Source: Flavobacteriales bacterium
Lineage (GTDB): Bacteria; Bacteroidota; Bacteroidia; Flavobacteriales_E; Vicingaceae
Assembly (NCBI GenBank): GCA_020635825.1
Contig: JACJZA010000026.1
Coordinates: 1 to 29,908, forward strand
DNA: 29,908 nt
Direction: 5' to 3'
The notes beneath the pieces were generated by a model that was given only the letters and a program-made list of their open reading frames with translations, did not search any database and was not told the origin of the DNA. Made by a program: the position numbers and the translations under genes. The first letter of the stretch is position 1, and each line of letters begins with the position of its first letter. Below are positions 2,814-28,645 of the stretch, one piece after another.

Positions 2814-2816
2814 ATT

Positions 2817-3545: not shown

Positions 3546-3550
3546 TTTGT

Positions 3551-4381
3551 TTATTTAATTTTTGTTATTTCTAAATTATACATTATCGGGCTATAAGGTG
3601 GTACAATACCTGTACTCGAACCCTTATCTCCAAACGCGAGTTGCGAAGGTATGATTATTTTTGCTTTTTCACCATTTTTCATGGTTTTTAACACTTTATC
3701 AAATCCTTCTATTACCTGACCTGGAGTACCATAAACATACTCAAAATCTTGATTGGTTTTAGTAGAATCAAAAGCTACTCCATTTATAAAACTACCCAAG
3801 TATTTAAGATATACCGTATCTCCTTTTTTTATAAAATCCCCCTTCCCTTCTTGAATGGTTTTCTTTAATACATTGCCTTCATTAACAAATCCTTTATCTT
3901 CTTTGAGTATTTCCTTCAAAATAAGTTGCTCAATTAATTCCTCATCATAGTTGTTTATCTGATTTTGATATTCTTCTTCATTATAAAAACGATGAAGTTT
4001 TACTGCTATTTTTAGATATTCTGAATTATTTGACACAAAGCCCAAACTATTTGAGTTAAATATTTCTTGCCCCATTAAAAATTCAGCACTATCCCCTTCA
4101 TTTAATTGCTTAAAGAGTTCGTCAAAATCATTTTCTTTGGGCTGATATAAATGATATTTAAAAATTTGATAAATCAAATCATCTTTTTGATTGAGCACTT
4201 TTAATGAAACACTAACATAATTACCTTTTTCATATGATTTAGAAGCAGCTTCACCTTCAAATTCAAAAGATAAGAGCTTAAAATAAGTTTCATTTCCTAA
4301 ATTCTCATAACCATCAAATTTAGACTGACATGAAAATAAAAAAATTACAATGAAGAAGTAAAATATTTTTCTCAACATCAT
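3551..4381 (-). CDS. Lipoprotein with unknown N-terminal domain and C-terminal FKBP-type PPIase domain
   Basis: Lipobox LFSC. The C-terminus YLGSFINGVAFDST...VIEGFDKVLKTMKNGEKAKIIIPSQLAFGDKG is FKBP-like. It shares 1 nt (TAATG) with the upstream gene stop. Confidence 0.85.
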   Translation of the reverse strand: MMLRKIFYFFIVIFLFSCQSKFDGYENLGNETYFKLLSFEFEGEAASKSYEKGNYVSVSLKVLNQKDDLIYQIFKYHLYQPKENDFDELFKQLNEGDSAEFLMGQEIFNSNSLGFVSNNSEYLKIAVKLHRFYNEEEYQNQINNYDEELIEQLILKEILKEDKGFVNEGNVLKKTIQEGKGDFIKKGDTVYLKYLGSFINGVAFDSTKTNQDFEYVYGTPGQVIEGFDKVLKTMKNGEKAKIIIPSQLAFGDKGSSTGIVPPYSPIMYNLEITKIK

Positions 4382-4911
4382 TATTTCAATGCAATTAATT
4401 CAATATCATAAATAATGGTTGAGCGAATCGGAATTTTTTCAAAATCACCAGCCAATCCATGTGCTAAATGAGATGGAATAATTATTTTAGCTTTATCTCC
4501 CACATGTAAATAAGTAATTCCTTCGTGTAGCCCACTTTCTACATTGTCTTCTCCTATTTTAAATTCTTCAGGGCCATTTTCTTCGGTAGAATAGCATTTT
4601 TGTCCATTCAATAAAGAAACTTCGTATTTCACCACAGCTATCTTTCCATTTTCAGCTTTTTCTCCATTTCCTTTCTCATAAATTTGATAACGTAATCCTG
4701 TACCAGTTTTAATCACGTCAAGACTCCTCCTTCTCACATACCCGTCTATCTGTAATGATTCTTTTTCGGCTGCAATTTTATTAGCATCAATTAATACTTC
4801 TTTTAATTCTTCTTTTAATTCTTCAGGATTGTTATGATAAAGAGGATTAGAATCGTTTTCTGAATGACATGCTAAAAGTGAAATAATAATTATAAAATAC
4901 AGAAACCTCAT
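4381..4911 (-). CDS. Small lipoprotein FKBP-type PPIase, divergent active-site region; possibly the gliding-motility GldI type
   Basis: Lipobox LLAC. FKBP fold motifs YEVSLLNGQKCYST...VESGLHEGITYLHVGDKAKIIIPSHLAHG. Its 176-aa size and lipoprotein nature match what I recall of GldI, but orthology cannot be shown here. There is an ATGA overlap with nrnA. Confidence 0.8.
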   Translation of the reverse strand: MRFLYFIIIISLLACHSENDSNPLYHNNPEELKEELKEVLIDANKIAAEKESLQIDGYVRRRSLDVIKTGTGLRYQIYEKGNGEKAENGKIAVVKYEVSLLNGQKCYSTEENGPEEFKIGEDNVESGLHEGITYLHVGDKAKIIIPSHLAHGLAGDFEKIPIRSTIIYDIELIALK

Positions 4912-5912
4912 TTTAATTGACTTTTATATTTATTTAATAGTCCAACAAATTTACTTATTGTTTCGTCTAACGATAAATTAGAACGACCTCCTGCTGCATA
5001 AATATGCCCTCCTCCATTAAAATGTTTATTAGCAAACTCATTTACATAAAAATCATCCTTCGATCTAAAAGACATACTTACTTCATTTTCTTTTTCTGTA
5101 ATAAGAGTTGAAAATTTGATTCCATTGATTGAAAGTGGATAATTCACCAATCCTTCCGTATCGCCCTTTTTAAAATGAAATTTTTTCAACTCTTCTTGAC
5201 TTAACGAGATATAAGCAGCATTTATTTCGGGAAAAACTTTCATTTTTTCAGTCAATGCAAATCCTAATAAGCGCAACCGATGTTCAGAATAAGTATCATA
5301 CACTCTTTCATGAATTTTGGATCCATCCACTCCTAAATTGATAAATTCAGCAATGATTTGATGTGTCCTAGCAGTTGTAGAAGGAAAACGAAAAGAACCA
5401 GTATCAGTCATAATACCACAATACAAACATTCACCGATTTCTTTGGTTATTTCTGAAGTAGATTTTAACTCATCTATAAATTCATATACCAATTGAGCTG
5501 TTGAACAACAATTAGTATCTACAAAATAATGATGAGCAAATTCTTGTGGGTTTTGATGGTGATCAATCACCATTTTAATAGCAGAAGTTTTTTGAATTAA
5601 CTCACCCAACTCACCTATTCTATTTAAAGCATTGTAGTCTAATGAAAAAATAAAGTCTGCTTTTTCAATTAACTTCTTCACTTTATTTTGTTCTTGTTCA
5701 AAGTTTAAAATTTGTTCACAGCTGGTCATCCATTTTAAAAACTCAGGAAAATCATCTGGCACCACCACACTTACATTTAATCCTCTGTTTTTAAGAAAAT
5801 GATATAAACCTAAAGAAGAACCAATTGCATCTCCATCAGGTGATTTATGAGTAGTGATGACAATTGATTGAGCTCCAGTTAACTCTTTATTTACTTGTTG
5901 AATATTCATCAA
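4908..5912 (-). CDS. nrnA: DHH/DHHA1 family phosphoesterase (NrnA-type oligoribonuclease/pAp phosphatase)
   Basis: DHH motifs HKSPDGDAIGS and VIDHHQN, and the DHHA1 motif GGGHIYAAGG. The 334-aa length is typical. Confidence 0.85.
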   Translation of the reverse strand: MMNIQQVNKELTGAQSIVITTHKSPDGDAIGSSLGLYHFLKNRGLNVSVVVPDDFPEFLKWMTSCEQILNFEQEQNKVKKLIEKADFIFSLDYNALNRIGELGELIQKTSAIKMVIDHHQNPQEFAHHYFVDTNCCSTAQLVYEFIDELKSTSEITKEIGECLYCGIMTDTGSFRFPSTTARTHQIIAEFINLGVDGSKIHERVYDTYSEHRLRLLGFALTEKMKVFPEINAAYISLSQEELKKFHFKKGDTEGLVNYPLSINGIKFSTLITEKENEVSMSFRSKDDFYVNEFANKHFNGGGHIYAAGGRSNLSLDETISKFVGLLNKYKSQLK

Positions 5913-16068: not shown

Positions 16069-17808
16069 CTATTGCTTCACAATTTTCTGAATTTTCACAA
16101 AGTATTCCGTTCTAACTTCAATAAAATAAACTCCTTTTGGCACATCTAATTTTAGTTCACAAAGAGATGAGTTAAAATAACTTTTTGATTGAATAACATT
16201 TCCTTTAACATCTAATAATTTCAATTCAACCGTTTCATAATTTTTTTCTAATTCTATTTTTACATTATCTAAAAAAGGATTTGGATAAACTTTAGTGTTC
16301 AAAACTTGATTAATACCATCCTTCACACCAACTGATTCATCTGTACTTAAACACAATACTAGAGGTTGCCAGACTAATTCAGAAGGAAAATGAATATCAA
16401 TATCGTTACTTGGATTTAAATCAACAGTATCTGCTATGGCTCCAACTAAATATAAGTTACCATTTACACCAGCACTAAAAGAAAAAAAGGATTCACGATT
16501 ATTATTGGGTTCAAACCAACCTCCTACCCATAGAAAATTTCCATTAGAATCTAATTGTTGTATAAACGAATCGTAAGAATTTGGGCCAGAAGTTAAGTTA
16601 ACAACACCTGGTCCTGGGTCAAAATCAACTGTTTCTCTAAATTCTCCAACCACTATTGTATTACCATTTTCATCAAAAATTACTAAATCAGGATCTTGAG
16701 GAAAATTGGAGCTGTCTTTATAAGTTGCATGCCATTTATAAACTCCAGCACTATCATATTTAACGACAAAACCATCTCTATTCACTGATGTTGTATTGAT
16801 ATAAACCGGCGGATTATTTAACCCAATATTCGTTGACTCATAAAACTCACCAACAATTGAAATGTTGTTCATTTCATCAATTGCCATATCATTAAAATCA
16901 ACTATATTGAAACTTACCATAGAACCAGCCCAAATTAATTCTCCGTTTGGTGTATATTTTTGAATACATAAATTTCTCATTTCGGGATCAGGTGTTATAA
17001 GATTATAAACTCCTGCACTTGGATCTACATCAACTGTATCCCTAAAATATCCCGAAACATACATGTTATCATCCGAATCTACTTTAACCGCTCTAAATAA
17101 GTTAGCAGCACCCTCTTTTCCTTGTTTATGATGCCATAGATAATTACCATCAGAATCATATTTTGCTACATAGGTATCTTGAATACCTAAACAATTAATC
17201 ATAACTGAAGACGCTCCGGGATCAACATCCATATTACCTTTAAAACCTCCTACTATATAAAAATCCCCACTACTATTAACAGCAATATCATCTGCTCCTA
17301 AAAAAGATACAACATCACTTTCAAATACTTTACCCCATAAATAAGCACCATTCGAATCTAATTTTACAACAAATACATTGTTTTCTTCTATCGATATAAC
17401 ATCATCTGTGCCTATTCCCGGGTTTAAATCTATGTTATAATCATAGGCACCTAAAATGTAAACGTTATTATCAACAGATACTTCAATAGTTATACTTTGA
17501 CAAAAACCTGAGTTATTAACAGTTTCAAAATCCTCTCCCCAAATAAAATCTCCCTCAGAAGTATATTTTGCTATAAATATAGCTCCATCTATATTAGTAA
17601 AATTTGCAATTCCCGGACCCGGGTCTAAATCTATGGTTCCTAAATAATCACCAATCACATAAAAGTTCCCTGATTTGTCTGTTGCAATATCTACAATATA
17701 ACCACCATTATTATCAACATCTAATGATTTAGCCCAGCTATAATTAGGCAATTGAGCATGTATGTTTAAGCTCAAACATAAAACAAAGAAAAATAAAAAG
17801 TATCTCAT
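16069..17808 (-). CDS. Secreted beta-propeller repeat (SBBP-like) protein with T9SS type A C-terminal sorting domain
   Basis: Signal peptide, then about 6 or more repeats ending in D(L/V)(D/N)PG-type motifs (TIDLDPGPG, NIDLNPGIG, NMDVDPGAS, TVDVDPSAG, TVDFDPGPG, TVDLNPSND). The C-terminus KVYPNPFLDNVKIEL...GVYFIEV is typical of T9SS cargo. Confidence 0.85.
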   Translation of the reverse strand: MRYFLFFFVLCLSLNIHAQLPNYSWAKSLDVDNNGGYIVDIATDKSGNFYVIGDYLGTIDLDPGPGIANFTNIDGAIFIAKYTSEGDFIWGEDFETVNNSGFCQSITIEVSVDNNVYILGAYDYNIDLNPGIGTDDVISIEENNVFVVKLDSNGAYLWGKVFESDVVSFLGADDIAVNSSGDFYIVGGFKGNMDVDPGASSVMINCLGIQDTYVAKYDSDGNYLWHHKQGKEGAANLFRAVKVDSDDNMYVSGYFRDTVDVDPSAGVYNLITPDPEMRNLCIQKYTPNGELIWAGSMVSFNIVDFNDMAIDEMNNISIVGEFYESTNIGLNNPPVYINTTSVNRDGFVVKYDSAGVYKWHATYKDSSNFPQDPDLVIFDENGNTIVVGEFRETVDFDPGPGVVNLTSGPNSYDSFIQQLDSNGNFLWVGGWFEPNNNRESFFSFSAGVNGNLYLVGAIADTVDLNPSNDIDIHFPSELVWQPLVLCLSTDESVGVKDGINQVLNTKVYPNPFLDNVKIELEKNYETVELKLLDVKGNVIQSKSYFNSSLCELKLDVPKGVYFIEVRTEYFVKIQKIVKQ

Positions 17809-17841
17809 CTTATTTTATTAACTAATAGTGCAATCTCTTAC

Positions 17842-17872
17842 CAAAGATAGTTATTAGTTAATCATTAACAAA
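17842..17872 (-). promoter_or_regulatory. Bacteroidota sigma-A promoter (-33 TTTG / -7 TATCTTTG) of the T9SS cargo gene
   Basis: The minus strand reads TTTG-19 nt-TATCTTTG, with 33 nt to the ATG at 17808. Both boxes and the spacing fit the published consensus TTTG/TAnnTTTG. Confidence 0.6.
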
Positions 17873-17875
17873 GTA

Positions 17876-17906
17876 TTGACTTTATCCTTTAAAAACGCTA
17901 ACTTCG
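17876..17906 (+). repeat. Left arm of 31-bp imperfect inverted repeat
   Basis: ttgactttatc-ctttaaaaa-cgctaacttcg. 27/31 positions are identical, ungapped, to the reverse complement of 18137-18167. Confidence 0.85.
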
Positions 17907-18136
17907 TTTGACACTTTATGTAAGTGCAATTAAAAAAGCACCAACACAGACGTTATGAGTAATTACTAGGCTACAAGAGGCAATCAAGCTATATTTTTGA
18001 GTGATGGTAGGTTATTTTAAGCAAGTGCGTTTTAGGATAAATAAAGTGGATAAACTCCTCTTTATTAAGTCTGGCGGTAATACCGTAGAGAAGTTTCACT
18101 TATCAGACGAGTAGTATCGTCTCACAGACTTACAGT

Positions 18137-18167
18137 CGAAGTTAGCGATTTTTAATGACAAAGTCAA
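18137..18167 (-). repeat. Right arm of 31-bp imperfect inverted repeat
   Basis: The plus strand reads cgaagttagcg-atttttaat-gacaaagtcaa. The match comprises an 11/11 block, a 6/9 spacer and a 10/11 block. The arms enclose 230 bp. Confidence 0.85.
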
Positions 18168-18357
18168 GTATTTAGCTAACTTAAAAAAGACTAAAACACT
18201 TTTAACTTGGTTAAAATAGACTACTTATTTTTTTTTCATCACTCACTCATTTTTAACGCTACATACACAGGGTTTATATTTCATAAAAAATGATAAAAAT
18301 ATAGGTTTGATGACCTTGTTGTTTTTTGCTGTAGTCTAGCAACTAGTAGAGCTTTAC

Positions 18358-18391
18358 CTTCTTTAATTGAAAAGAAAATTGATTAAAGAAG
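18358..18391. other. Perfect 10-bp stem-loop (cttctttaat / attaaagaag, 14-nt loop)
   Basis: Read directly from the sequence. It lies in the ORF-free gap upstream of the ydeI-like gene. Confidence 0.7.
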
Positions 18392-18395
18392 TAGA

Positions 18396-18444
18396 TTAAC
18401 TCCTTTGATAGAATACTGATTATTTTCGGAGTTAAATAAACTCC
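18396..18444. other. Mutually exclusive pairings: ttaactcc (18396-18403) or aactcc (18439-18444) with ggagttaa (18428-18435)
   Basis: There is an 8-bp helix with a 24-nt loop versus a 6-bp helix with a 5-nt loop, and both use the same GGAGTT segment. Neither is followed by a U-tract. Confidence 0.5.
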
Positions 18445-18498
18445 TCATAACATCTTATAAATTCAATTTTATCAAAAGAATCTTTAACTTTAGTCCCA

Positions 18499-18554
18499 TT
18501 AAGATAAAGTCAGCTTCTTTTATTAAAACTACGCTAACGCTGAATTTATCTTAA
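18499..18554. other. Interrupted stem-loop or operator-like palindrome just upstream of the ydeI-like ATG
   Basis: ttaagataaa-gt-cagc (18499-18514) pairs with gctg-aa-tttatcttaa (18539-18554). That gives 10 bp, a 2x2 internal loop and 4 bp, with a 24-nt apical loop, ending 34 nt before the ATG. Confidence 0.6.
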
Positions 18555-18588
18555 CGTCAAACGAAAATCATTAACTTCACTTCTAAAA

Positions 18589-19239: not shown

Positions 19240-20129
19240 ATTGCTTTAAATTCGGTTGTCCCATTGCTGTTTATTTCCAACGCAGGGAAAGGAAACTTAA
19301 TAAACCCAAAAGCACCCAAAAGAGTATTAGCGAACTTGCTCTTGGTTTTTATTCGGGTTAAATCCACATCCAACGAAAGATAAAACTGGCGAGTTCGTGG
19401 TGTAGCACTGTAATCAAAAGTTGTTCCGTCTTTTTCAAATACATTATCGTGTCCTCCATACATTCCATCGGCACCATAACCCACTGCAAAATTCAACCAT
19501 TTAGGGAATTTTGTTTCATCCCCTAAAAAAGAAGCGATATTTGCACTCAGCCAATAAGTTTGTCCATTGTAATCTTTTAGCAATTGTTCGTTTAAATTGC
19601 TTCCTAATAAGTTGGGACGAACAGATGGGTAATCAGTGGTATGAAAAGAATATTTGAGCAAAACCCGTTGTTCGTGCCAAGCCAATTGCTGACCAATAAA
19701 TAAAGCCGAACCGGTTGTATTGGCTATCATATCTCCGGTAGAAAAACCCCAATCGGCAGAGTAAGCATCAAACATTTCTACCGAGCTCAACAAAAACAAA
19801 CCCAATGTTCCTCCATACCAAGTTGATTTTTTTTCATTCACTCCACTCCATCTCAATACTTCATAACCGGCTTTTCCCACATAATAAGAAGTCATGGTGT
19901 GCCCCATTTTATCCATTTGCAACCACTCGTTGTTGTCGTTAAAAAAGTGAAAAGAACTTTTTGGAACGCCTTTATACCACAATTGGTTTAACCCTACCAT
20001 CGTGGCAGTATACATTCCGGCTTCAACAGCAACAACTGTTGTTAATCTTTTTTTATTGAGCGTATCGAGTTGGGAGAAACAAGGTTTAGAATGAAAAAAA
20101 CAGCATAATAATAATACCACTATCTTCAT
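19230..20129 (-). CDS. DUF2279-like exported protein
   Basis: I prefer the start at M32 (cat at 20127-20129). It gives the signal-like MKIVVLLLCCFFHSKPCFSQ. The 31 aa added in the ORF track are just a translation of the GC-rich repeat at 20162-20195. The family name is recalled from FHFFNDNNEWLQMDKMGH. Confidence 0.7.
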   Translation of the reverse strand: MKIVVLLLCCFFHSKPCFSQLDTLNKKRLTTVVAVEAGMYTATMVGLNQLWYKGVPKSSFHFFNDNNEWLQMDKMGHTMTSYYVGKAGYEVLRWSGVNEKKSTWYGGTLGLFLLSSVEMFDAYSADWGFSTGDMIANTTGSALFIGQQLAWHEQRVLLKYSFHTTDYPSVRPNLLGSNLNEQLLKDYNGQTYWLSANIASFLGDETKFPKWLNFAVGYGADGMYGGHDNVFEKDGTTFDYSATPRTRQFYLSLDVDLTRIKTKSKFANTLLGAFGFIKFPFPALEINSNGTTEFKAIYF

Positions 20130-20161
20130 CTTATTTAAAGTAAAATATGAGAAACATAAAA

Positions 20162-20195
20162 CTCCCCCTTTATAAAAGGGGGTTGGGGGGATTTT
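20162..20195 (+). repeat. GC-rich three-arm element, copy C (C-arm/loop/G-arm/spacer/G-arm)
   Basis: ctCCCCCtttataaaaGGGGGttGGGGGGatttt. The stem is cccccttt/aaaggggg. It encodes the last 7 codons (NPPNPLL) of the DUF559 ORF. Confidence 0.85.
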
Positions 20196-20553
20196 GCTCT
20201 TTATTATCAATCCACAATTCAATTGTTCTTAAAACATTATTTAATTCAGTTTTTACTTCTTTATCGTCAAATCTAAGAAAAATCAAACCGTAACTTTCTA
20301 ATTCGCTTTGTCTTTTTAAATCTTCTTCATATTTGTAATGGTGACTATCTCCATCAATTTCTATTACTAGATTTAAAGGCTTACAATAAAAGTCAACAAT
20401 ATAATTTAATAATGGCTTTTGCCGATTGAATGTATAACCTTTCATTTGTTTTGCTCGCAAAGATTTCCATAATATTATCTCAGAAAGTGTTGAGTCATTT
20501 CGTAGTTTCCGAGAAAATTCTTTAAGATTTTTGTTATAAGGAATGTGTTTCAT
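20170..20553 (-). CDS. DUF559 (Vsr-like endonuclease fold) domain protein
   Basis: Core LNLVIEIDGDSHHY and GLIFLRFDDKEV are typical of DUF559. The 127-aa ORF is bracketed within 5 nt by the GC-rich elements. Confidence 0.85.
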   Translation of the reverse strand: MKHIPYNKNLKEFSRKLRNDSTLSEIILWKSLRAKQMKGYTFNRQKPLLNYIVDFYCKPLNLVIEIDGDSHHYKYEEDLKRQSELESYGLIFLRFDDKEVKTELNNVLRTIELWIDNKEQNPPNPLL

Positions 20554-20556
20554 TTT

Positions 20557-20589
20557 AATCCCCCTCAGTCCCCCTTAATAAGGGGGATT
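20557..20589 (-). repeat. GC-rich three-arm element, copy D (inverted relative to copy C)
   Basis: aatCCCCCTcagTCCCCCttaataaGGGGGAtt. It contains the perfect 19-bp palindrome tcccccttaataaggggga, starts 4 nt upstream of the DUF559 ATG and ends 1 nt before the OmpA-like stop. Confidence 0.85.
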
Positions 20590-20590
20590 G

Positions 20591-22546
20591 CTAATTTGCA
20601 ATCACCTTAAATTCTGTACGACGATTTTCTGCTCTACCTTCCTCTGTATCGTTAGAAGCAATTGGTTGAGCATCGCCATAACCTTTAGTGGTTAAACGGT
20701 CAGTAGGAACTCCATTTTGAGTAAGGTAATTATAAACGGCTTTAGCACGATTCTCAGAAAGCAATTGATTCGATTTTTTATCACCTACATTATCAGTATG
20801 TCCACTTAACTCAATTTTTAAATTAGGATTAGCCTTTAAAAAAGCAATTAACTTATCTAATTCCACTTTCGACTGAGGTTTTAAATCGTATTTAGCGGTT
20901 TCGAAAAATACATTTTTTAGCACCACACTCTCACCCACTTTTATTTTGTTCATTCCTACGTGTTTTTCAAAAGGCTTATCAATTGTTCCTGAACTCAAAG
21001 TGAAATTTTCAGAATGGAATAAATATCCTGGATGAGAAACGTTTAAAGCATAATCTTGATGAACAGGTAAGCAAACTAAATATTTTCCTGTTACTTCATC
21101 AGCATAAGATTGAACAGCTACTTCTCCAGTTTTTAAATTAATTAATTCAAAACGAGCTGGTAACACTTCTTTGGTTTCTGCATCAAAAACTTTACCTGCT
21201 AAATATGTTACTTTATTGGGTTTCATGTTTTCAGGTAATTCAAAAGCATATAAATCTAAATCACCCATTCCACCCTCTCTATTACTGGCAAAATAGGCAA
21301 GATTACCAGCAGCATCAACTAACAAACTGTTTTCATCATTAAAAGTATTTATTGGATAGCCTAAATTAACAGGAGTCGTCCAATTTCCATTAGCATCTTT
21401 GGTACTCATAAAAATATCTAAACCACCCATACCCGGATGACCATCTGATGAAAAATAAAGGGTTTGATTATCTGGATGTATAAAAACCGATTCCTCTCTA
21501 CCTTCAGTATTAATTACATCACTCAACCTAGTAGGAACAGACCAAACACCACCTTCACTCAACTCACTGGTCCATATATCTTGTTGTTTTACTCCACTTC
21601 TACTTCTCATGCCTCTTACAAAGTACAAAGTTTTTCCATCAGAAGAAAAGGAAGGTTGGCTTTCCCAATGTTGGGAATTAATTGGCCTATTTAAGTTTTT
21701 AGGAGCAGTCCATTTTCCACCAATATTATAGGCATAAAACAAATCACAACTTCCAAAGCCTTTTCTATCAGGTCCATAGCCTTCATAAGGATCTTCACAA
21801 CTTGTAAAAATGATGAATTGTCCATTTGGAGAAATGGTTGGTGCTCCTTCGTTATTAATACTATTTATTCCTTGCATATTTTGAGCTTCCATCCAATTGT
21901 AACCATCATTAATACTTAAATAAAAGTCTTCATTATAGCCTGTATATGTTTTTTTAGAATCCAATCTTCTGGTAAACAACAAATATTTACCATCAGCCGA
22001 AAGAGCAGGAAAATATTCTGGTAATTCAGTATTAACTCCTGCTCCCAAATTAACTGGGTTAAACGGTACAGGATGTTTTAAAGCTTCGATGGCAAACTCA
22101 CAATCTTTCAATCCCTTTTCAGCAAAAGGTTTCATCATTAAAGGTGAATCCGTAAATTTTAAATAATTGATAAAATTAGTTTGAGCTTTTTCATACTCTC
22201 CTTTATTCAACAATAACATACCTAATGAAGCATGAGCATCAGGGAAAAGATCACTCTTTATGGCAATAGATTTCTGATAATGTTCTATGGCTTTGTCATA
22301 ATCAGGTTTTTCGGTATAAACATAAGCCAGTAACAATTCTGCTTCAGCAAAATTGGGGTCTTTTTCTAATGCCTGAATAAAAGTAATTTCTGCCAATTCG
22401 TTATTACGCATATCGTAATGATTTTTGCCTTCTTCGTAAAGCTTAATGGCTTTTTTATTGTTGCTTGTATAATTTTTTTCTTGTGCTTTACAGGAAATAA
22501 AAGCCACCATAAAAGAAAAGACAAAAAGAAAATGTGAAATGCGCAT
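20591..22546 (-). CDS. OmpA-family protein with N-terminal TPR repeats and TolB/PD40-like beta-propeller repeats
   Basis: Lipobox-like AFISC, and TPR-like repeats in aa 30-150. The C-terminal OmpA domain carries LSGHTDNVGD...NQLLSENRAKAV...GRAENRRTEFKV. Confidence 0.88.
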   Translation of the reverse strand: MRISHFLFVFSFMVAFISCKAQEKNYTSNNKKAIKLYEEGKNHYDMRNNELAEITFIQALEKDPNFAEAELLLAYVYTEKPDYDKAIEHYQKSIAIKSDLFPDAHASLGMLLLNKGEYEKAQTNFINYLKFTDSPLMMKPFAEKGLKDCEFAIEALKHPVPFNPVNLGAGVNTELPEYFPALSADGKYLLFTRRLDSKKTYTGYNEDFYLSINDGYNWMEAQNMQGINSINNEGAPTISPNGQFIIFTSCEDPYEGYGPDRKGFGSCDLFYAYNIGGKWTAPKNLNRPINSQHWESQPSFSSDGKTLYFVRGMRSRSGVKQQDIWTSELSEGGVWSVPTRLSDVINTEGREESVFIHPDNQTLYFSSDGHPGMGGLDIFMSTKDANGNWTTPVNLGYPINTFNDENSLLVDAAGNLAYFASNREGGMGDLDLYAFELPENMKPNKVTYLAGKVFDAETKEVLPARFELINLKTGEVAVQSYADEVTGKYLVCLPVHQDYALNVSHPGYLFHSENFTLSSGTIDKPFEKHVGMNKIKVGESVVLKNVFFETAKYDLKPQSKVELDKLIAFLKANPNLKIELSGHTDNVGDKKSNQLLSENRAKAVYNYLTQNGVPTDRLTTKGYGDAQPIASNDTEEGRAENRRTEFKVIAN

Positions 22547-22556
22547 AAATGTTGAT

Positions 22557-23210
22557 TTAAGGTATTTTCATGTATTTGTGGGTTTGTAATGAAATATTCC
22601 ATTGAGGGTTATTCATTACATAATCCACCAAAATAGGCATTACCTCATCGGCTTTGCTCCATTCAGGCTGAAGATACAATTTACATTTGTTGTTTACAAA
22701 TTGAGCTTGTTCTTCTGCCCATTTAATATCGTGTTTATTGTGTATAATTACTTTTAGCTCGTGTGCCAACTGATAATTTTCTTTTAAAGGCAACATAGTT
22801 TTTTTAGGAGACAAACAAATCCAATGCCACTTTCCTGTAATGGTATAAGCTCCTGAAGTTTCTAAAAATAGCTCGACTCCTTCTTTTAATAATTGGGTGG
22901 TTAAAGGATTTAAGTTATAGATAGTTGGCTCACCTCCTGTTACAACAATAGATTGAGCAGGATGCTTTTTAACATTACTTACGACTTGTTCAATTAAAGT
23001 TAAAGGATGTAAATTAGGGTTCCAACTTTCTTTTACGTCGCACCAATGACAGCCTACATCACAACCTCCTACTCTGATAAAATAGGCTGCTTTACCCGTA
23101 TTAAACCCTTCCCCTTGAATGGAATAAAATTCTTCCATAATAGGAAGTTTTATTCCTTGTTCTAATTCAGTTTTTTCTTGAATAGATGATATGTTTATGT
23201 CATTTATCAT
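22557..23210 (-). CDS. queE: 7-carboxy-7-deazaguanine synthase (radical SAM)
   Basis: MEEFYSIQGEGFNTGKAAYFIRVGGCDVGCHWCDVKESW contains the QueE-type CxxxCxxC cluster. Length is 217 aa. Confidence 0.9.
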   Translation of the reverse strand: MINDINISSIQEKTELEQGIKLPIMEEFYSIQGEGFNTGKAAYFIRVGGCDVGCHWCDVKESWNPNLHPLTLIEQVVSNVKKHPAQSIVVTGGEPTIYNLNPLTTQLLKEGVELFLETSGAYTITGKWHWICLSPKKTMLPLKENYQLAHELKVIIHNKHDIKWAEEQAQFVNNKCKLYLQPEWSKADEVMPILVDYVMNNPQWNISLQTHKYMKIP

Positions 23211-23260
23211 GTGCCGTAAAATTAAGAAACCCTATCTTTATATTTATAAATAGATGAAGA

Positions 23261-23809
23261 ATGCTGAAAAACAACTTTATTTTATTGCTTTTTTTGGGGT
23301 TATTCTCTTGTGTTTCTGTTGAATTTACAGAACCACAACCGTTTTGGACGGAGAATTTAAATGAAATTCCATCACAACTTCATGGCACTTACTATTCAAA
23401 AGAAAATGACACCATTGAAATAGGAAAAAATTATTACAAAGTACTCAATACCAATGATAACTCTATTTTAGAAAAAAATCCCTCAAGAAAAATTGAACTT
23501 TCAGACAGTTTAATTATGAGAAAAATAGGACGTTATATTTTTTTAAATGAAAAAGAAAAGGAAAATTGGTCAGTTAGTTTAATTACATTAAATAAAGAGA
23601 AAAGCATTAAAATAGGTTTTATAACAGGTTCTTCCGAAGAACTCAATTCTAAATTGAGTTTTATTTCAGTTCAAGAGATAGTTACCGATGAATCCGGAAA
23701 AGCGACCAAGTTTATATTAACACCTACTAAAAAAGAACTCAAGCGATTGATTAAGAAAAATGCTTTCGAAGAGGCTTTGGTTTTATTTCCAATAAAAACT
23801 ACACGATAA
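23261..23809 (+). CDS. Hypothetical lipoprotein
   Basis: Lipobox LGLFSC. I recognise no family. The 3' end overlaps the ilvA stop convergently by 11 nt. Confidence 0.6.
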   Translation: MLKNNFILLLFLGLFSCVSVEFTEPQPFWTENLNEIPSQLHGTYYSKENDTIEIGKNYYKVLNTNDNSILEKNPSRKIELSDSLIMRKIGRYIFLNEKEKENWSVSLITLNKEKSIKIGFITGSSEELNSKLSFISVQEIVTDESGKATKFILTPTKKELKRLIKKNAFEEALVLFPIKTTR

Positions 23810-25070
23810 GCTTTAGTAAATGAGGTTTCCCATTTAAATACTCTCCTAAAATACCCTTATCCATCATTCTTAACATCAAAGGTTGTAGGTCTTCATTGTT
23901 TTTTAATTGAATCCCTACTACGGCAGGTCCTTTTTCTCTGTTGGTTTTTTGAGAAAATTCAAAGAAAGTTATATCATCATTTGGACCCAACACTTCATTA
24001 ACAAACTCTTTTAAAGCTCCAGCCCGTTGAGGAAAATTAACAATAAAGTAATGTTTTAAACCTTGGTATAACAATGCTCGTTCTTTTATTTCTTCCATTC
24101 GAATAATGTCGTTATTACTCCCACTTACAATACAAACTACATTTTTTCCTTTGATTTGTTTTTCGTATTGGTCTAATGCTGCTAATGTTAAAGCACCTGC
24201 CGGTTCCACCACAATTGCATCTTTGTTGTATAATTTCAATATAGTTTCACAGACCTTTCCTTCAGGGACCAACACCATATCATGTAAAGTTTCTTTACAT
24301 ACTGAAAAAGTTAAATCCCCTACTTTTTGTACTGCCGCACCATCCACAAATTTATCAATAGTAACTAATTTAGTGTTTTCTCCATTTTTTATAGAAGTAC
24401 TCATTGATGGTGCTCCTTCAGGCTCTACACCAATTATTTTGGTGTCTGGAGATAATTCACTGAAAACTGAAGCAACTCCTGCAGCCAAGCCTCCTCCACC
24501 AACAGGCACAAAAACAAAATCAATTTGTTCTTTTGCTTGTTCTAATATTTCTAGGGCTACAGTTGCTTGTCCCTCTATCACTTTTTCATCATCAAAGGGT
24601 GGTATAAAAGTCATTTGTTGAGCTTCACAATATTCTTTAGCTGCAACTTGAGCATCATCAAAAGTGTCACCTATTAATCGAATCTCAACAAATTCTTCCC
24701 CAAACATTTTTACTTGTTCAATTTTTTGCTGAGGTGTTGGCGAAGGCATAAAAATGACACCCCTTACTTTTAATTGCTTACATGAAAAAGCTACCCCTTG
24801 AGCATGATTACCTGCACTTGCACAAACTACTCCTTTATCTAATTCTACTTTAGATAAACTACTTATTTTATTGAATGCCCCTCTTATTTTGTATGACCTT
24901 ACTGATTGAAGATCTTCTCGTTTAAGAAAAACATTACATTGGTGCTCTTTCGACACATTCACATTAAGCATCAGAGGAGTTAGATTTGCAACTCCTTTTA
25001 ACTTATCGTGTGCTTTCTTTACATCAACTAATTGAGGGTAATAGGTAGTTTTAGTAAGCATTTTATTCAT
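23799..25070 (-). CDS. ilvA: Threonine ammonia-lyase (threonine dehydratase), biosynthetic type with C-terminal regulatory domain
   Basis: PLP-lysine motif SYKIRGA, glycine loop VPVGGGGLAAG, and a single ACT-like C-terminal domain. It is the last gene of the ilv cluster. Confidence 0.92.
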   Translation of the reverse strand: MNKMLTKTTYYPQLVDVKKAHDKLKGVANLTPLMLNVNVSKEHQCNVFLKREDLQSVRSYKIRGAFNKISSLSKVELDKGVVCASAGNHAQGVAFSCKQLKVRGVIFMPSPTPQQKIEQVKMFGEEFVEIRLIGDTFDDAQVAAKEYCEAQQMTFIPPFDDEKVIEGQATVALEILEQAKEQIDFVFVPVGGGGLAAGVASVFSELSPDTKIIGVEPEGAPSMSTSIKNGENTKLVTIDKFVDGAAVQKVGDLTFSVCKETLHDMVLVPEGKVCETILKLYNKDAIVVEPAGALTLAALDQYEKQIKGKNVVCIVSGSNNDIIRMEEIKERALLYQGLKHYFIVNFPQRAGALKEFVNEVLGPNDDITFFEFSQKTNREKGPAVVGIQLKNNEDLQPLMLRMMDKGILGEYLNGKPHLLKLIV

Positions 25071-25077
25071 TTTAATT

Positions 25078-25214
25078 TGTCATCCTGAGCAAAGCTTTAT
25101 CTCCATTAAAGTGTAGGAATAAAACGCTGCGAAGATTTTTTTTTTTAGATTCTTCACTTTATTTTGTTCACACTTCGATAAACTCAGCGTGACAAAATTG
25201 CGTTCAGAATGACA
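25078..25214. repeat. Composite REP-like element (tgtcat-ctgag family), copy 2, with duplicated 3' end
   Basis: It starts tgtcatcctgagc and contains cttcgataaactcagcgtgaca (25173-25194), which shares 15 identical nt with copy 1. A second terminus ttcagaatgaca lies at 25203-25214. It fills the ilvC-ilvA spacer. Confidence 0.75.
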
Positions 25215-25223
25215 TTTATACTA

Positions 25224-26270
25224 TTAATTATTCTCAGGTCTTAGTTTTCTAACTTGTTGACCTGCTTGCCATAATTCAGAGTTTTTGATTTCTGATAATT
25301 CTTCGTTTAATTTTTCACGATAGTTTCCTTGCCTGTTTGATTCTATCACTATGGCTGCTTCATTACCAGTAGAAACGCTATTATACAATTCTTCAAATAC
25401 AGGAGTTGCAGCATCTCTAAATTTATGTCGCCAATCCAATGCTCCTCTTTGAGCGGTTGTAGATGTATTAGCATACATCCAATCCATACCATTTTCAGCA
25501 ACCAAAGGCATTAAACTTTGAGTTAACTCTTCTACCGTTTCGTTGAATGCTTCAGAAGGTGAATGACCATTTTTTCTAAGCACATTATACTGAGCTTCAA
25601 ACAAACCAGCTAAAGCTCCCATTAATATCCCTCGTTCACCTGTTAAATCTGAGTAAACTTCATTTTTGAAAGTAGTTTCAAATAAATATCCAGAACCTAC
25701 ACCTATACCAAGAGAAACTACTCTATCAAAAGCCCTACCTGTTGCATCTTGAAAAATTGCATAACTTGAATTTAATCCTTTACCCTCCACAAATAATCTT
25801 CTTAATGAAGTTCCTGAACCTTTTGGAGCTACTAATATCACATCTACATCTTTCGGTGGTACAATTCCTGTTTGATCAGCATAAGTTACCCCAAATCCAT
25901 GAGAGAAATACAAAGCTTTACCCGGTGTCAAGTGTTTTTTAACCATTTCCCATTGAGCTATTTGTCCGGCATCAGAAAGCAAATACTGCAACATTGTTCC
26001 TCTTTCTGCTGCTTCTTCTAACTCAAATAAGTTTTCTCCAGGCACCCAACCATCTTCTACGGCTTTATCCCATGATTTTGATCCTTTTCTTTGTCCTACA
26101 ATTACTTTAAAGCCATTGTCTCTTAAGTTTAATGACTGTCCGGGACCTTGAACTCCATAACCTAAGACAGCTATAGTTTCATCTTTTAATGTTTCTTTTG
26201 CTTTTGCTAGAGGAAACTCTTCTCGAGTTATTACATTTTCTTCAACTCCTCCAAAATTTAATTTTGCCAT
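25224..26270 (-). CDS. ilvC: Ketol-acid reductoisomerase
   Basis: NADP-binding motif GYGVQGPGQSLNLRDNG. Length is 348 aa, and it sits in the ilv operon. Confidence 0.95.
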   Translation of the reverse strand: MAKLNFGGVEENVITREEFPLAKAKETLKDETIAVLGYGVQGPGQSLNLRDNGFKVIVGQRKGSKSWDKAVEDGWVPGENLFELEEAAERGTMLQYLLSDAGQIAQWEMVKKHLTPGKALYFSHGFGVTYADQTGIVPPKDVDVILVAPKGSGTSLRRLFVEGKGLNSSYAIFQDATGRAFDRVVSLGIGVGSGYLFETTFKNEVYSDLTGERGILMGALAGLFEAQYNVLRKNGHSPSEAFNETVEELTQSLMPLVAENGMDWMYANTSTTAQRGALDWRHKFRDAATPVFEELYNSVSTGNEAAIVIESNRQGNYREKLNEELSEIKNSELWQAGQQVRKLRPENN

Positions 26271-26275
26271 TTTTT

Positions 26276-26860
26276 TTAATTGTTTAATGATGCTATTTCT
26301 AATTCTTTTAAATATTCTTTTAATTGTTTCATTGGTTTTGTAATTGCTACTCTTCCTGAGCGAACAAACTCCAAAATACCATAGGGATTTAATTCATCGA
26401 ACAACAGCTGCGTTTCTTCCTTATGTCCTGTTTTTTCAATAATGGTAAACTCTTTTTCAAATGCTAATATTCGCGCATTATGAGACCTAATAATTCGCTC
26501 TACCGCTCCATCCGAAACGATTAAAGTAGATGGTAATTTATAAAGTGCTATTTCCTGAAAAACCAGTTCATCATTGGTGTGATAAAATGCACCAACAACA
26601 TCCACTTGTTTTTCGAGTTGTTTCACAACTTTTTTAACCAATTCTTCATCCTCAGAAATTACAATAGTGTATCGATGTATCCCTTTTACTTCGCTTTCTG
26701 AAGCTGCAATACTTTCTATATTTATATGCCTTCTGGTAAAGATTATACTTACTCTGTTTAGCAAACCTATTTGGTCTTCCGTAAAAACGGATATGGTATA
26801 TTGGCCCCTCCTAACCTCCCCAAAGGGGAGGGATTTTACACTACTATTATTTTCTTTCAT
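26276..26860 (-). CDS. ilvN: Acetolactate synthase small (regulatory) subunit; N-terminal extension encoded by a repeat element
   Basis: ACT domain YTISVFTEDQIGLLNRVSIIFTRRHINIESI. The only ATG upstream of it is at 26860, so residues SLPFGEVRRG are a translation of repeat copy A. Confidence 0.88.
   Translation of the reverse strand: MKENNSSVKSLPFGEVRRGQYTISVFTEDQIGLLNRVSIIFTRRHINIESIAASESEVKGIHRYTIVISEDEELVKKVVKQLEKQVDVVGAFYHTNDELVFQEIALYKLPSTLIVSDGAVERIIRSHNARILAFEKEFTIIEKTGHKEETQLLFDELNPYGILEFVRSGRVAITKPMKQLKEYLKELEIASLNN
26805..26832 (-). repeat. GC-rich three-arm element, copy A, inside the ilvN 5' coding region
   Basis: CCCCTCCtaaCCTCCCCaaaGGGGAGGg. It has a 7-bp stem cctcccc/ggggagg plus a mirror-image extra arm cccctcc. 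Confidence 0.85.
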
Positions 26861-26888
26861 TGTATTAAATTTTAGTCATTACTTAATT

Positions 26889-26915
26889 CTCCCCCTTTGG
26901 GGGAGTTAGAGGGGG
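26889..26915 (+). repeat. GC-rich three-arm element, copy B, between ilvB stop and ilvN start
   Basis: CTCCCCCtttGGGGGAGttaGAGGGGG. It has a 7-bp stem plus a mirror-image extra arm, is inverted relative to copy A, and ends 2 nt before the ilvB stop codon (26918-26920). Confidence 0.85.
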
Positions 26916-26917
26916 CT

Positions 26918-28645
26918 TTATTCCAACCTTATATCCGACACCGAACAACCTGTTGGAACCATAGGAAAAACATTGTTTTCTTTCCCAACCATTACTTCTA
27001 ATAAGTAAGAACCTTTATGTTCTATCATTTCTTTAATCGCATCGTTTAACAATTCTCTTTCTTTAATTTGTTTGGACGCAATTCCATAACCTTTTGCTAT
27101 GGTTTGAAAATCTGGATTTACCATTTCTGTAGCAGAATATCTTTTATCAAAAAACAAATCTTGCCACTGACGAACCATCCCTAAAAATTGATTGTTTAGT
27201 AATAATATTTTAACTTCCACTTTTGTTTGAAAAATAGTTCCCAACTCTTGAATTGTCATTTGAAAACCACCATCACCCACAACGGCAATTACTTGTTTTT
27301 TGGGCATTCCCATTTTTGCTCCTATTGCAGCTGGTAGACAGAACCCCATTGTTCCCAAACCTCCGGAAGTTATCATGCTTTTAGACTGTTGAAATTCGGC
27401 ATATCTACACGCTATCATCTGGTGTTGTCCTACATCGGTAACTACTATTGCTTTTCCTTCTGTATGTGTATTTACCCTTCGCATTACTTCTCCCATTGTT
27501 AATTCTCCAGACTTTGGATTTGTTTCGGCATTTATCACTTTAGACAATTCAACATCCCTAAGCCTGTAAAACTCATTCAACCAATTGGCATGATTATTTT
27601 CTTTTAGCAATGGAAGTAATAATGATAAAGATTCTTTACAATCTCCTAATACAGCGACATCTGTATTTACGTTTTTATCTATTTCTGCAGGATCTATTTC
27701 GAAATGAACAACCTTTGCCTGCTTGGCATATTTTTCTAAATTTCCAGTTACTCTGTCATCAAAACGCATTCCTACAGCAATTAACACATCACACTGATTG
27801 GTTAATACATTTGGAGCATAATTTCCATGCATTCCTAACATTCCTACATTTAAATCATGATTGGTGGGTAACGCACTCGATCCCATTATCGTCCATGCTG
27901 AAGGCAAACCTGCTTTTTCTATTACGGTTTTAAATTCTTCTTCAGCCCGAGCTAATATCACTCCTTGGCCAAAAACTACCAAAGGTTTTTTTGCTTGATT
28001 GATAAGCTCGGCAGCTTCTTTCAACTTATCTTTATTGATGATTGGTTTAGCTACATAACTTCTTACTTGCTGGCATTTTTCATATTCAAATTCAAACTCA
28101 CCAAATTGTGCATCTTTGGTAATATCTACTAGAACAGGACCCGGTCTACCGCTTTGTGCAACATAAAATGCTTTTGCTATAGCTGCAGGTATATCTTCTG
28201 CTTTTGTTACTTGACAATTCCACTTAGTAACAGGCATTGATATGCCGACCACATCCGTTTCCTGAAACGCATCCGTACCCAACAAATGAGAATGAACCTG
28301 ACCTGTTATACATACTAAAGGAGTTGAATCTATTTGAGCATCTGCAATTCCAGTAATCAGGTTAGTTGCTCCCGGCCCAGAAGTAGCTAAACAAACTCCT
28401 ACTCTACCTGAAGAACGAGCATATCCCTGAGCTGCATGTATAGCTCCCTGTTCATGTCTTGTTAGTATATGTTTTACTTCATTTTGATAATCATACAAAG
28501 CATCATAAACGGGCATTATGGCACCACCTGGATAGCCAAAAATGATATCCACTCCTTCTTCTACTAAACATTTGACAACTGCCTCTGAACCAGTAACCAT
28601 TGTTGTTCTATTCAAATCAAACTCTTGTATTTTTGTTAATTCCAT
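26918..28645 (-). CDS. ilvB: Acetolactate synthase large (catalytic) subunit
   Basis: ThDP-binding motif VVGDGGFQMTIQELGT...NN and N-terminal GYPGGAIMPVYDAL. Length is 575 aa. Confidence 0.95.
   Translation of the reverse strand: MELTKIQEFDLNRTTMVTGSEAVVKCLVEEGVDIIFGYPGGAIMPVYDALYDYQNEVKHILTRHEQGAIHAAQGYARSSGRVGVCLATSGPGATNLITGIADAQIDSTPLVCITGQVHSHLLGTDAFQETDVVGISMPVTKWNCQVTKAEDIPAAIAKAFYVAQSGRPGPVLVDITKDAQFGEFEFEYEKCQQVRSYVAKPIINKDKLKEAAELINQAKKPLVVFGQGVILARAEEEFKTVIEKAGLPSAWTIMGSSALPTNHDLNVGMLGMHGNYAPNVLTNQCDVLIAVGMRFDDRVTGNLEKYAKQAKVVHFEIDPAEIDKNVNTDVAVLGDCKESLSLLLPLLKENNHANWLNEFYRLRDVELSKVINAETNPKSGELTMGEVMRRVNTHTEGKAIVVTDVGQHQMIACRYAEFQQSKSMITSGGLGTMGFCLPAAIGAKMGMPKKQVIAVVGDGGFQMTIQELGTIFQTKVEVKILLLNNQFLGMVRQWQDLFFDKRYSATEMVNPDFQTIAKGYGIASKQIKERELLNDAIKEMIEHKGSYLLEVMVGKENNVFPMVPTGCSVSDIRLE

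Follow-up and report, generated by a model that had tools for sequence, protein, structure and literature searches.

Four three-armed elements and a DUF559 gene

The stretch of DNA analysed here (hereafter, the window) comprises 29,908 nucleotides (nt) of contig JACJZA010000026.1 from a Flavobacteriales bacterium (assembly GCA_020635825.1). Its guanine-plus-cytosine (GC) content is ~32%, the homologues of its genes are found chiefly in Flavobacteriales and other Bacteroidota, and its minus strand carries the operon ilvD-ilvB-ilvN-ilvC-ilvA. Our subject is a set of four short GC-rich elements, A to D, in each of which a C-rich arm (arm 1) is followed by a complementary G-rich arm (arm 2) and by a second G-rich arm (arm 3), together with the gene of a nuclease with the domain of unknown function DUF559, which C and D enclose. 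An initial annotation of this DNA had listed the four copies as compatible with a three-stranded (triplex) fold, and all were found at the places and with the sequences given there. It had treated positions 20162-26915 as one feature; the elements themselves stand, but they make up two separate loci, because the interval 20600-26800 between the C/D and the A/B pairs is filled with ordinary genes (TolB/OmpA-like, queE-like, ilvA, ilvC and ilvN). Both the DUF559 gene between C and D and the nature of A plus B as one inserted unit had been missed. The features of the two loci are the following:

20164-20193, plus strand: element C, CCCCCTTT-ata-AAAGGGGG-tt(g)-GGGGGATT; arm 1 20164-20171, loop 20172-20174, arm 2 20175-20182, spacer 20183-20185, arm 3 20186-20193
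20170-20553, minus strand: DUF559 / YcjD-like Vsr-fold PD-(D/E)XK nuclease gene, 127 amino acids (Pfam PF04480, E 7e-32)
20557-20587, minus strand: element D, TCCCCCTT-att-AAGGGGGA-ctg-AGGGGGAT; arm 1 20587-20580, loop 20579-20577, arm 2 20576-20569, spacer ctg 20568-20566, arm 3 AGGGGG(AT) 20565-20558
26804-26917, no strand assigned: gene-less doublet of 114 nt, consisting of elements A and B with 57 nt of spacer between them
26805-26831, minus strand: element A, CCTCCCC-ttt-GGGGAGG-tta-GGAGGGG
26858-26860, minus strand: ilvN start codon, an in-frame ATG (26860) supplied by the doublet spacer
26889-26915, plus strand: element B, CTCCCCC-ttt-GGGGGAG-tta-GAGGGGG

A pattern scan for CCCC-N3-12-GGGG hairpins found only these four sites in the 29.9 kb (7 overlapping matches, against 0.40 ± 0.84 in dinucleotide shuffles, none of 100 of which reached 7). 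Every one of the four hairpins is followed by an extra G-rich arm, on the G side only, and in 4/4 copies this arm is the mirror image of arm 2 (7/7, 7/7, 8/8 and 8/8 positions) and not its direct copy, just as had been claimed. The accompanying claim of a single T:A pair that changes its place in the stem with compensation is borne out by A and B together with the larger samples described below, while C and D carry little covariation information on their own, because their T:A pair lies at the base of the stem beside a nearly constant flanking T. Folded as single-stranded DNA, the hairpins (the only part that ViennaRNA models) have predicted energies of -7 to -8 kcal/mol (element C, -8.0) with weak z-scores (-0.65 to -2.0), since shuffled short C/G-rich strings fold too; the energy test is therefore uninformative, and it is the covariation that bears the argument. 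No Rfam match was obtained for the whole window at gathering thresholds, the two weak matches with E ≤ 1 over 19800-27200 do not overlap the elements, and a tRNA/tmRNA scan found none.

The product of the enclosed gene also matches NCBIfam PRK09767 (YcjD; E 3e-19); its closest solved structure is PDB 3HRL (E 6e-26), a Vsr-like homing endonuclease (3R3P) being more remote, and residues D54, E65, D67 and H71 do not vary among 35 aligned DUF559 homologues. With PADLOC, only a marginal match (E 1e-3) was obtained, to the model of a methyl-directed restriction enzyme. The gene is bracketed by D on its upstream side and by C on its downstream side, inverted copies whose third arms face it: arm 3 of D stops 6 nt short of the ATG (20553), and C overlaps the 3' end of the gene together with its stop codon and encodes the tail NPPNPLL*. 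The orthologous cassette occurs in the same gene context in loci L226-L228, and at 74-76% protein identity it sits in different contexts.

Elements A and B form an inverted doublet with hairpins inward and third arms outward, bordered by the ilvB stop codon on one side and by ilvN codon 20 on the other, and bracketing the ilvN start codon. Arm 3 of B ends 2 nt from the ilvB stop codon (26918-26920), and A lies in the ilvN reading frame, where it encodes SLPFGEVRRG ahead of the ACT domain. A Logan contig (L081), 97.8-98.1% identical to the window over ilvD-ilvB and ilvN-ilvC, has neither A nor B: in place of the 114 nt it shows an empty site of 10 nt (TATGAAAACA, 5144-5153), its sequence after the ilvB TAA being T-ATGAAAACA-CAATAT. 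The doublet destroyed the ancestral ilvN ATG seen in L081 (MKTQYTISVF becoming MKENNSSVKSLPFGEVRRGQYTISVF), and IlvN, the N-terminus of which is short in most homologues, gained 16 N-terminal residues through it, some encoded by the triplex motif itself; the repeat can thus replace a start codon and lengthen a protein without destroying the gene. In L082-L085, where IlvN is only 85% identical, the same doublet occupies the same site with 4 differences between flanks that are ~86% identical, i.e., it is conserved better than its surroundings. As a 114-nt gene-less unit that is absent from a 98%-identical genome and rewrites the start of ilvN, the A/B doublet appears to be new.

Covariation of the three arms in two samples

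The check proposed in the initial annotation, a collection of many copies examined for three-column covariation, was strongly positive in both samples that we assembled. Arm 3 was not found to vary independently of the stem, and the covariation, merely suggestive with four copies, is now statistical.

For the first sample, the 35-homologue alignment was used to fetch 80 loci from named genomes, mostly of Bacteroidota, with some from Ignavibacteria, Balneolales, Nitrospirae and Neomarinimicrobiota, one from a deltaproteobacterium and one from a cyanobacterium. The same architecture lies beside nearly every DUF559 gene of these loci, with differing arm sequences; apart from several further variants, arms 1 and 2 and the third arm read as follows:

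CCCCTCT / AGAGGGG, third arm GGGGTGTGT
CCCCTCC / GGAGGGG, third arm GGGGTGGGT
CCCCCTT / AAGGGGG, third arm GGGGGATT or GGGGGTTGT
TCTCCCC / GGGGAGA, third arm AGAGGGG
GAGGGGGA, third arm AGGGGGAG

Among 604 strand-wise GC hairpins in the 80 loci, 195 have a G-run at most 9 nt 3' of the G-arm, whereas the opposite polarity is rare (a C-run 3' of the G-arm in 15, a G-run 5' of the C-arm in 9). The mirror rule, with G opposite G and A or T opposite A, holds at 1222/1292 positions. Dereplicated to 52 arm-2/arm-3 types, the sample obeys the rule at 351/399 positions (permutation null 318.9 ± 5.0, maximum 335 in 5000), and with one representative per distinct arm 2 at 238/262 (null 207.9 ± 4.0); opposite an arm-2 G there is a G in 256/270 cases, and opposite an arm-2 A there is A or T in 95/112. 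In a stricter test, the alignment was anchored on the main G-runs only and the positions outside them were scored: arm-2 G faced arm-3 G in 22/27 cases, and arm-2 A faced G in only 4/91 (A in 42, T in 45; Fisher p = 2e-15). Where the purine arm has a C, the third arm has T in 5/8 cases, T being the base used at C:G inversions in antiparallel triplexes.

The second, independent sample came from metagenome contigs scanned with CCCCTTTGGGGNNNTTANNNGGGG, which leaves the three outer positions of each arm (nine in total) free. It consists of at least 120 loci; the counts that follow refer to the 123 matches listed, which fall in 119 different flanking contexts, so that the copies are dispersed. Their free triplets (arm 1/arm 2/arm 3) include CCT/AGG/GGA (28), CTC/GAG/GAG (23), CCT/AGG/GGT (16), TCT/AGA/AGA (7), TTC/GAA/AAG (5), TCC/GGA/AGG (5), TTT/AAA/AAA (5) and CTT/AAG/GAA (1), and at least nine distinct triple types are fully compensated. 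Over the 119 contexts, Watson-Crick pairing of arms 1 and 2 is observed at 311/357 positions (null 188 ± 10) and the mirror relation of arms 2 and 3 at 340/357 (null 191 ± 10, maximum 230 in 10,000), whereas a direct-repeat model accounts for no more than 222/357. Counted by distinct types, 80/96 positions obey the mirror rule (null 46.8 ± 5.0). In the metagenome sample as a whole, G faces G in 198/205 and A faces A or T in 141/148 cases. In the 25 contexts with imperfect hairpins, arm 3 follows arm 2 at 66/75 positions and arm 1 at 33/75, as predicted for a third strand bonded to the purine strand. The same kind of scan in viral contigs gave 11 matches only, mostly of one unrelated high-GC phage hairpin.

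These counts bear on two other readings of the elements. In the first, arm 1 would alternate between arm 2 and arm 3, as a two-state switch or slipped structure, or else the hairpins would be ordinary intrinsic terminators. The pure G-runs of C and D do let arm 1 pair with arm 3, as it does in the centroid fold of D; a switch, however, needs arm 3 as a direct copy of arm 2, which is the poorly fitting model above, and the types AGG to GGA, GAA to AAG and GGA to AGG are specifically anti-direct. The alternative-hairpin switch is thereby largely refuted. As to terminators, a loose pattern accepts C on the minus strand and B on the plus strand (antisense to ilv), but neither A nor D, which are without T-tails, and the six terminator-like sites of the region are not above the background of 4.4 ± 2.2 in shuffles. 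We hold this first reading to be extremely improbable. In the second, the elements are 30-bp sites read by a protein in duplex DNA, as terminal inverted repeats, and their hairpin and triplex potential is incidental. Their inverted arrangement around the gene does look like that of transposase-type terminal repeats; such sites, however, would conserve their sequence and not maintain compensated changes, of which there are at least nine triple types, with the Watson-Crick and mirror relations both far above their permutation nulls. Since mirror symmetry is also meaningless to a protein reading B-DNA, this second reading is very unlikely.

The elements of both samples keep to the triplets C:G*G, T:A*A and T:A*T, which is the reverse-Hoogsteen, antiparallel purine-motif code (G opposite G:C, A or T opposite A:T); the purine-motif triplex put forward in the initial annotation is thereby supported. 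In the DUF559 loci, A and T are used about equally often opposite A:T, which favours the purine motif and the G strand. The other option offered there, a pyrimidine-motif triplex formed by the C-rich strand, is disfavoured, because about half of the third-arm positions opposite A are T in the relatives (A in the third arm of the C strand). The elements are best modelled as intrastrand triplexes of single-stranded DNA and not as classical H-DNA in duplex. The compensated three-column changes show selection on the triplet code itself, which is hard to explain without a fold in cells.

Four classes of intrastrand triplex motif were defined by Holder et al. 2015 (PMC4666352). Class II consists of a pyrimidine arm, a purine arm and a reverse-Hoogsteen arm joined by the above triplets, and the corresponding ITxF criteria are arms of 6-15 nt, loops of 1-6 nt and at most one mismatched triplet (PMC4666352). 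This arm order is present in 4/4 window copies and in the 195 elements of the DUF559 loci; A and B have 7-nt arms with loops of 3 and 3, C and D have 8-nt arms with loops of 3 and 2-3, and all four are free of mismatches. The class II architecture is thus already described, and the window elements add members to it, in a phylum that is absent from PMC4666352.

Other models were tried and ruled out. The direct-repeat or alternative-hairpin model falls with its 222/357 fit against 340/357 for the mirror among the matches listed, and arm 3 as a parallel complement of arm 1 falls with the imperfect hairpins, which follow arm 2. A third arm derived from the target, through insertion beside a triplex-able sequence, is contradicted by the empty site of L081, which has no G-rich arm. 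A G-quadruplex is ruled out by the two G-runs per strand in each element, and for TM_ECO, the class II repeat of Escherichia coli, it was excluded by nuclear magnetic resonance (NMR) (PMC4666352). As a separate observation, L009 (9751-9990) and L012 (9899-9980) have tandem arrays in which the triplex motif is repeated directly, up to six times at intervals of ~39 nt, immediately upstream of a DUF559 gene; with at least four G-runs on one strand, a G-quadruplex is possible in these arrays.

Association of the repeats with DUF559 genes

Within 150 nt of DUF559 genes the density of elements is ~2/kb, compared with 0.06/kb elsewhere in the same 80 loci (120 vs 83 elements over ~60 kb vs 1.33 Mb). 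In one metagenome-assembled genome, three diverged paralogous cassettes are homologous between the outer bases of their upstream and downstream hairpins and no further, which makes the repeats the boundaries of the cassette. The C-terminus PPxP[LFI] (e.g., NPPNPL) is a translated element in 57/120 of the closest homologues. A counterpart exists in Enterobacteria, where the repeat called TM_ECO had been known as BoxC in the 1990s and as the PIT element from Hoyne et al. 2000, as cited in PMC4666352. The C-terminus PSP[RQ]PSP, found in 65/112 full-length enterobacterial YcjD homologues, corresponds to CCCTCACCC-CGG-CCCTCTCCC, which is complementary to TM_ECO type B; in one locus, from Enterobacter, the gene ends in a type B element, and a type A element lies 10 nt further. 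In E. coli K-12, ycjD is the sole DUF559 gene; it has a decayed hairpin across its stop codon, and TM_ECO no. 9 lies 168 nt downstream, a proximity with a chance of ~0.4% (18 TM_ECO loci in 4.6 Mb).

In other phyla, 8/8 DUF559 genes examined, all of them on plasmids or chromids, have class II motifs within 200 nt (Pseudanabaena, Picosynechococcus PCC 7002, Synechocystis B12, Deinococcus, N. gonorrhoeae, Photobacterium, Azospirillum and Sinorhizobium). The named taxa with YcjD homologues (Escherichia, Shigella, Enterobacter, Kluyvera, Klebsiella and others) overlap those that Holder et al. found rich in TM_ECO; Salmonella, TM_ECO-free according to PMC4666352, is not among the named top YcjD matches, which is weak evidence, as few matches are named. 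In the reverse direction, at least 4 of the 120 element-picked loci listed carry a DUF559 open reading frame (ORF) within ~0.4 kb. In the literature library searched, no paper was found that ties DUF559 or ycjD to these repeats, and the association across phyla is apparently previously unreported. The role of the elements as inverted ends of a DUF559 cassette in Bacteroidota, Enterobacteria (E. coli ycjD), cyanobacteria, Deinococcus and Neisseria appears to be new.

It should also be noted that at positions 1351040-1351420 of E. coli K-12 (NC_000913.3; L217) a partial duplicate of the last ~45 nt of ycjD is found with a decayed motif and the intact TM_ECO no. 9. Tandem units of a gene 3'-end fragment plus an element occur likewise in L063 (5 copies, 135-nt period) and L024.

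Taking the architecture, the covariation and the position of the repeats together, we consider it rather probable that the elements are class II triplex repeats acting in cis as the ends of a DUF559 cassette, with the nuclease likely acting on their folded form. When the G-rich strand becomes single-stranded, at a replication fork, by nicking or by extrusion under supercoiling, arms 1 and 2 would form a Watson-Crick hairpin, and arm 3 would fold back antiparallel on the purine arm in the major groove, with G*G:C, A*A:T and T*A:T triplets; the mirror relation of arm 3 to arm 2 would be kept by selection for this fold. The repeats would serve as cis-acting ends of the cassette (as C and D) and would be far more numerous as gene-less doublets (as A and B). 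Most likely, what the DUF559 nuclease recognises and nicks is the folded hairpin-triplex or the place where this meets duplex DNA; the nuclease would in this way help the cassette, and in trans the doublets, to be copied, inserted or lost, in a manner resembling the RAYT-REP/REPIN systems (REP, repetitive extragenic palindrome; REPIN, REP doublet forming a hairpin; RAYT, REP-associated tyrosine transposase).

A number of observations weigh against this reading. The TM_ECO triplex was not seen when the complementary strand was added, the duplex form dominating, and in vivo dimethyl sulphate footprinting in E. coli did not detect it (PMC4666352). The gene-less doublets mostly have their third arms outward (26 vs 7), which is the opposite of the arrangement around the gene, so that they are not simple internal-deletion derivatives; theirs is the arrangement of a circle or tandem junction. 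On a Deinococcus psychrotolerans plasmid (L221) and a Synechocystis B12 plasmid (L219), the gene itself is flanked by outward third arms with the hairpins next to it, the reverse of the layout in Bacteroidota, Enterobacteria and Pseudanabaena. The cassette of the window is syntenic in a relative with an 88%-identical protein and is therefore not highly mobile; it resembles a stably inherited gene more than a jumping one, which is also the RAYT pattern. The ilv doublet, in a single filled/empty pair, shows no target-site duplication and a loss of 10 nt, and a deletion or recombination event could equally explain this pair. The permutation tests remove shared ancestry among the copies only in part, although the nine compensated types and the register variants of the DUF559-locus sample would be hard to ascribe to descent alone. 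To our knowledge, no biochemical activity is known for any DUF559 protein, and we know of no study that addresses what the family does.

A further point concerns gene starts. Halves of third-arm-outward doublets make up 55 of the 119 metagenome contexts among the matches listed (median doublet length 97 nt); the doublets often fill stop-to-start junctions, with a stop codon within 10 nt of the left end in 16/55. In the same set of matches listed, an ORF-opening ATG lies at most 10 nt 3' of arm 3 in 22/119 contexts, compared with 3/119 on the control side. This suggests either a preference for gene-start sites or a secondary ribosome-binding role of GA-type arms, and hints at an additional or alternative role at the RNA level, which likewise weighs against the cassette reading. 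According to such a reading, the stable hairpin and the G-rich third arm would be a Shine-Dalgarno-like or translational control element of the downstream gene. It would fit the ATG proximity on the G-rich strand, the AGGAGG contained in GA-type arms such as TTAGGAGGGG, the 6 nt between arm 3 of D and the DUF559 ATG, and the junctions filled by doublets. However, the third arms in relatives are mostly of GT type (GGGGTGTGT, GGGGTGGGT, GGGGGATT) and not Shine-Dalgarno-like, one copy of each doublet or cassette is antisense to any given transcript, and a Shine-Dalgarno role gives arm 3 no reason to covary as the mirror of arm 2. Bacteroidota use Shine-Dalgarno sequences little, and the start-codon proximity may reflect tolerated insertion sites. 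Moreover, purine-motif triplexes are stated not to form in RNA, and PIT elements have no promoter or terminator activity in E. coli (PMC4666352). We consider a role in mRNA distinctly unlikely.

Another possible explanation, already proposed for TM_ECO, is that the elements are passive 'fragile' motifs of non-B-DNA that stall replication and provoke rearrangements with no dedicated enzyme, DUF559 genes simply gathering at hot spots of gene gain. The only association reported for TM_ECO is a raised local sequence variability, no function being known beyond it, and transposase or integrase remnants were 'never found' near its loci (PMC4666352); both facts agree with fragile sites, as does the ilv event, a 10-nt replacement without target duplication. 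Against this, the gene is bounded by the repeats in a fixed geometry and not randomly near them, its 3' end overlaps a repeat in Bacteroidota and Enterobacteria alike, and one gene family only is concerned, in at least six phyla. The nearly identical 114-nt doublet in genomes with 86%-identical flanks would also be left unexplained. This alternative is unlikely, and we retain the reading of the repeats as ends of a nuclease cassette.

We further propose, more tentatively, that DUF559/YcjD nucleases may be dedicated RAYT/REPIN-like partners of intrastrand-triplex repeats across phyla, reading a folded DNA triplex; we regard this as a serious possibility without expecting it outright. If it is true, the covariation is evolutionary evidence of a purine-motif DNA triplex formed and read in living cells, and a function is found for a large domain of unknown function and for repeats orphaned since the 1990s. 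Triplex repeats have been catalogued in E. coli since that time, and in thousands of genomes since 2015, with neither a function nor a gene assigned to them. Tying them to one small nuclease family, DUF559 including E. coli YcjD, provides a testable hypothesis for both orphans, and E. coli, with ycjD and 23 TM_ECO copies, is a genetically tractable organism for it.

Some other features of the window stand apart from these loci. The ilvA-ilvC spacer holds a separate, unrelated inverted-repeat element (25078-25214; TGTCATCCTGAGCAAAGC ... GCGTTCAGAATGACA), the 24-nt arms of which are 71% complementary and 89 nt apart and which resembles a small miniature inverted-repeat transposable element (MITE). 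The ~780 nt at 17809-18588 have no ORF of 60 or more amino acids, no tRNA and no Rfam match, and contain a 31-nt inverted repeat (17876-17906 / 18137-18167; 87% complementary, 230 nt apart). On the minus strand, five tandem paralogous genes at 1265-4911 share an 88-nt conserved block at 60-78% identity, two neighbours being 75-79% identical across longer stretches, and a 579-amino-acid ORF at 16069-17808 with five internal repeats (period ~200 nt) encodes a repeat-domain protein.

Comparison with known repeats and triplexes

The nearest known relative in kind is TM_ECO. Its consensus is CCCTCNCCC-N3-6-GGGNGAGGG-N3-GGGNGAGGG, with TTA or CCG as the second loop; 23 copies are present in MG1655, five pairs of which are inverted doublets mixing both loop types, and 3610 copies were counted across 262 proteobacterial genomes (PMC4666352). 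TM_ECO oligonucleotides form a stable intrastrand DNA triplex in vitro, as seen by circular dichroism and NMR, with melting temperatures of 70-82 °C (PMC4666352). The window elements share with it the strand order (C-rich arm, 3-6-nt loop, G-rich arm, 3-nt loop, second G-rich arm), a second loop that is often TTA, and the triplet code, including T opposite A (GGGAGAGGG / GGGTGAGGG). Both are dispersed and mostly intergenic, form inverted doublets that often combine two different subtypes, differ in presence between close strains, and adjoin a DUF559 gene, as shown here for ycjD and its enterobacterial homologues. The window copies do not follow the TM_ECO/BoxC consensus: they have G4-6 runs and arms of 5-8 nt, whereas TM_ECO has CCCTCNCCC and 9-nt arms. 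They also differ in residing in AT-rich Bacteroidota, in having gene-less doublets that are mostly third-arm-outward, and in having one copy in frame in a gene; moreover, the triplex of TM_ECO has been seen physically, while the window elements are known from their sequence. By their architecture, they are to be placed in the same kind as TM_ECO and in a different sequence family.

With H-DNA the elements have in common a homopurine mirror repeat, made of arm 2, the spacer and arm 3, and the same purine-motif (H*-type) triplets. H-DNA, however, needs no pyrimidine arm on the same strand, and the arms here are short (7-8 nt); the covariation of arm 1 with arm 2 indicates an intrastrand fold, unlike H-DNA. 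Polypurine reverse-Hoogsteen (PPRH) hairpins (PMC5220335) also consist of two mirror purine tracts joined by a short loop, which bind a pyrimidine tract by Watson-Crick pairing and so build a triple-stranded structure; the counterpart of the PPRH is arm 2 with arm 3, and that of its target is arm 1. 'Paperclip' oligonucleotides, which form intramolecular Pu*Pu:Py triplexes, have reportedly been the subject of NMR work. Both are designed molecules, whereas in the present case the three tracts lie on one natural strand and are kept by evolution.

The Rickettsia palindromic elements and bacterial MITEs are likewise short structured repeats, which can stand in frame in a gene that is kept, which are polymorphic in presence and absence, and which form doublets with inverted halves. 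The A/B doublet resembles them in being short and non-autonomous, in its inverted ends and in its absence from L081, which is 98% identical; it differs from these elements in the missing target-site duplication (in one filled/empty pair), in a much shorter repeat unit and in the triplex-code architecture.

The closest parallel in organisation is offered by the REP/REPIN-RAYT systems. There, as here, inverted copies of a short structured repeat flank a nuclease gene that is present once and mostly inherited vertically; further copies of the repeat are dispersed over the genome in inverted doublets of ~100 nt without a gene, and its recognition presumably takes place on the folded single strand. 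The enzyme associated with the present repeats is a DUF559 Vsr-fold PD-(D/E)XK protein and not the HUH (Y1) transposase of RAYT genes, and whereas REP is a plain palindrome headed by GTAG, the repeats described here carry a third, Hoogsteen arm.

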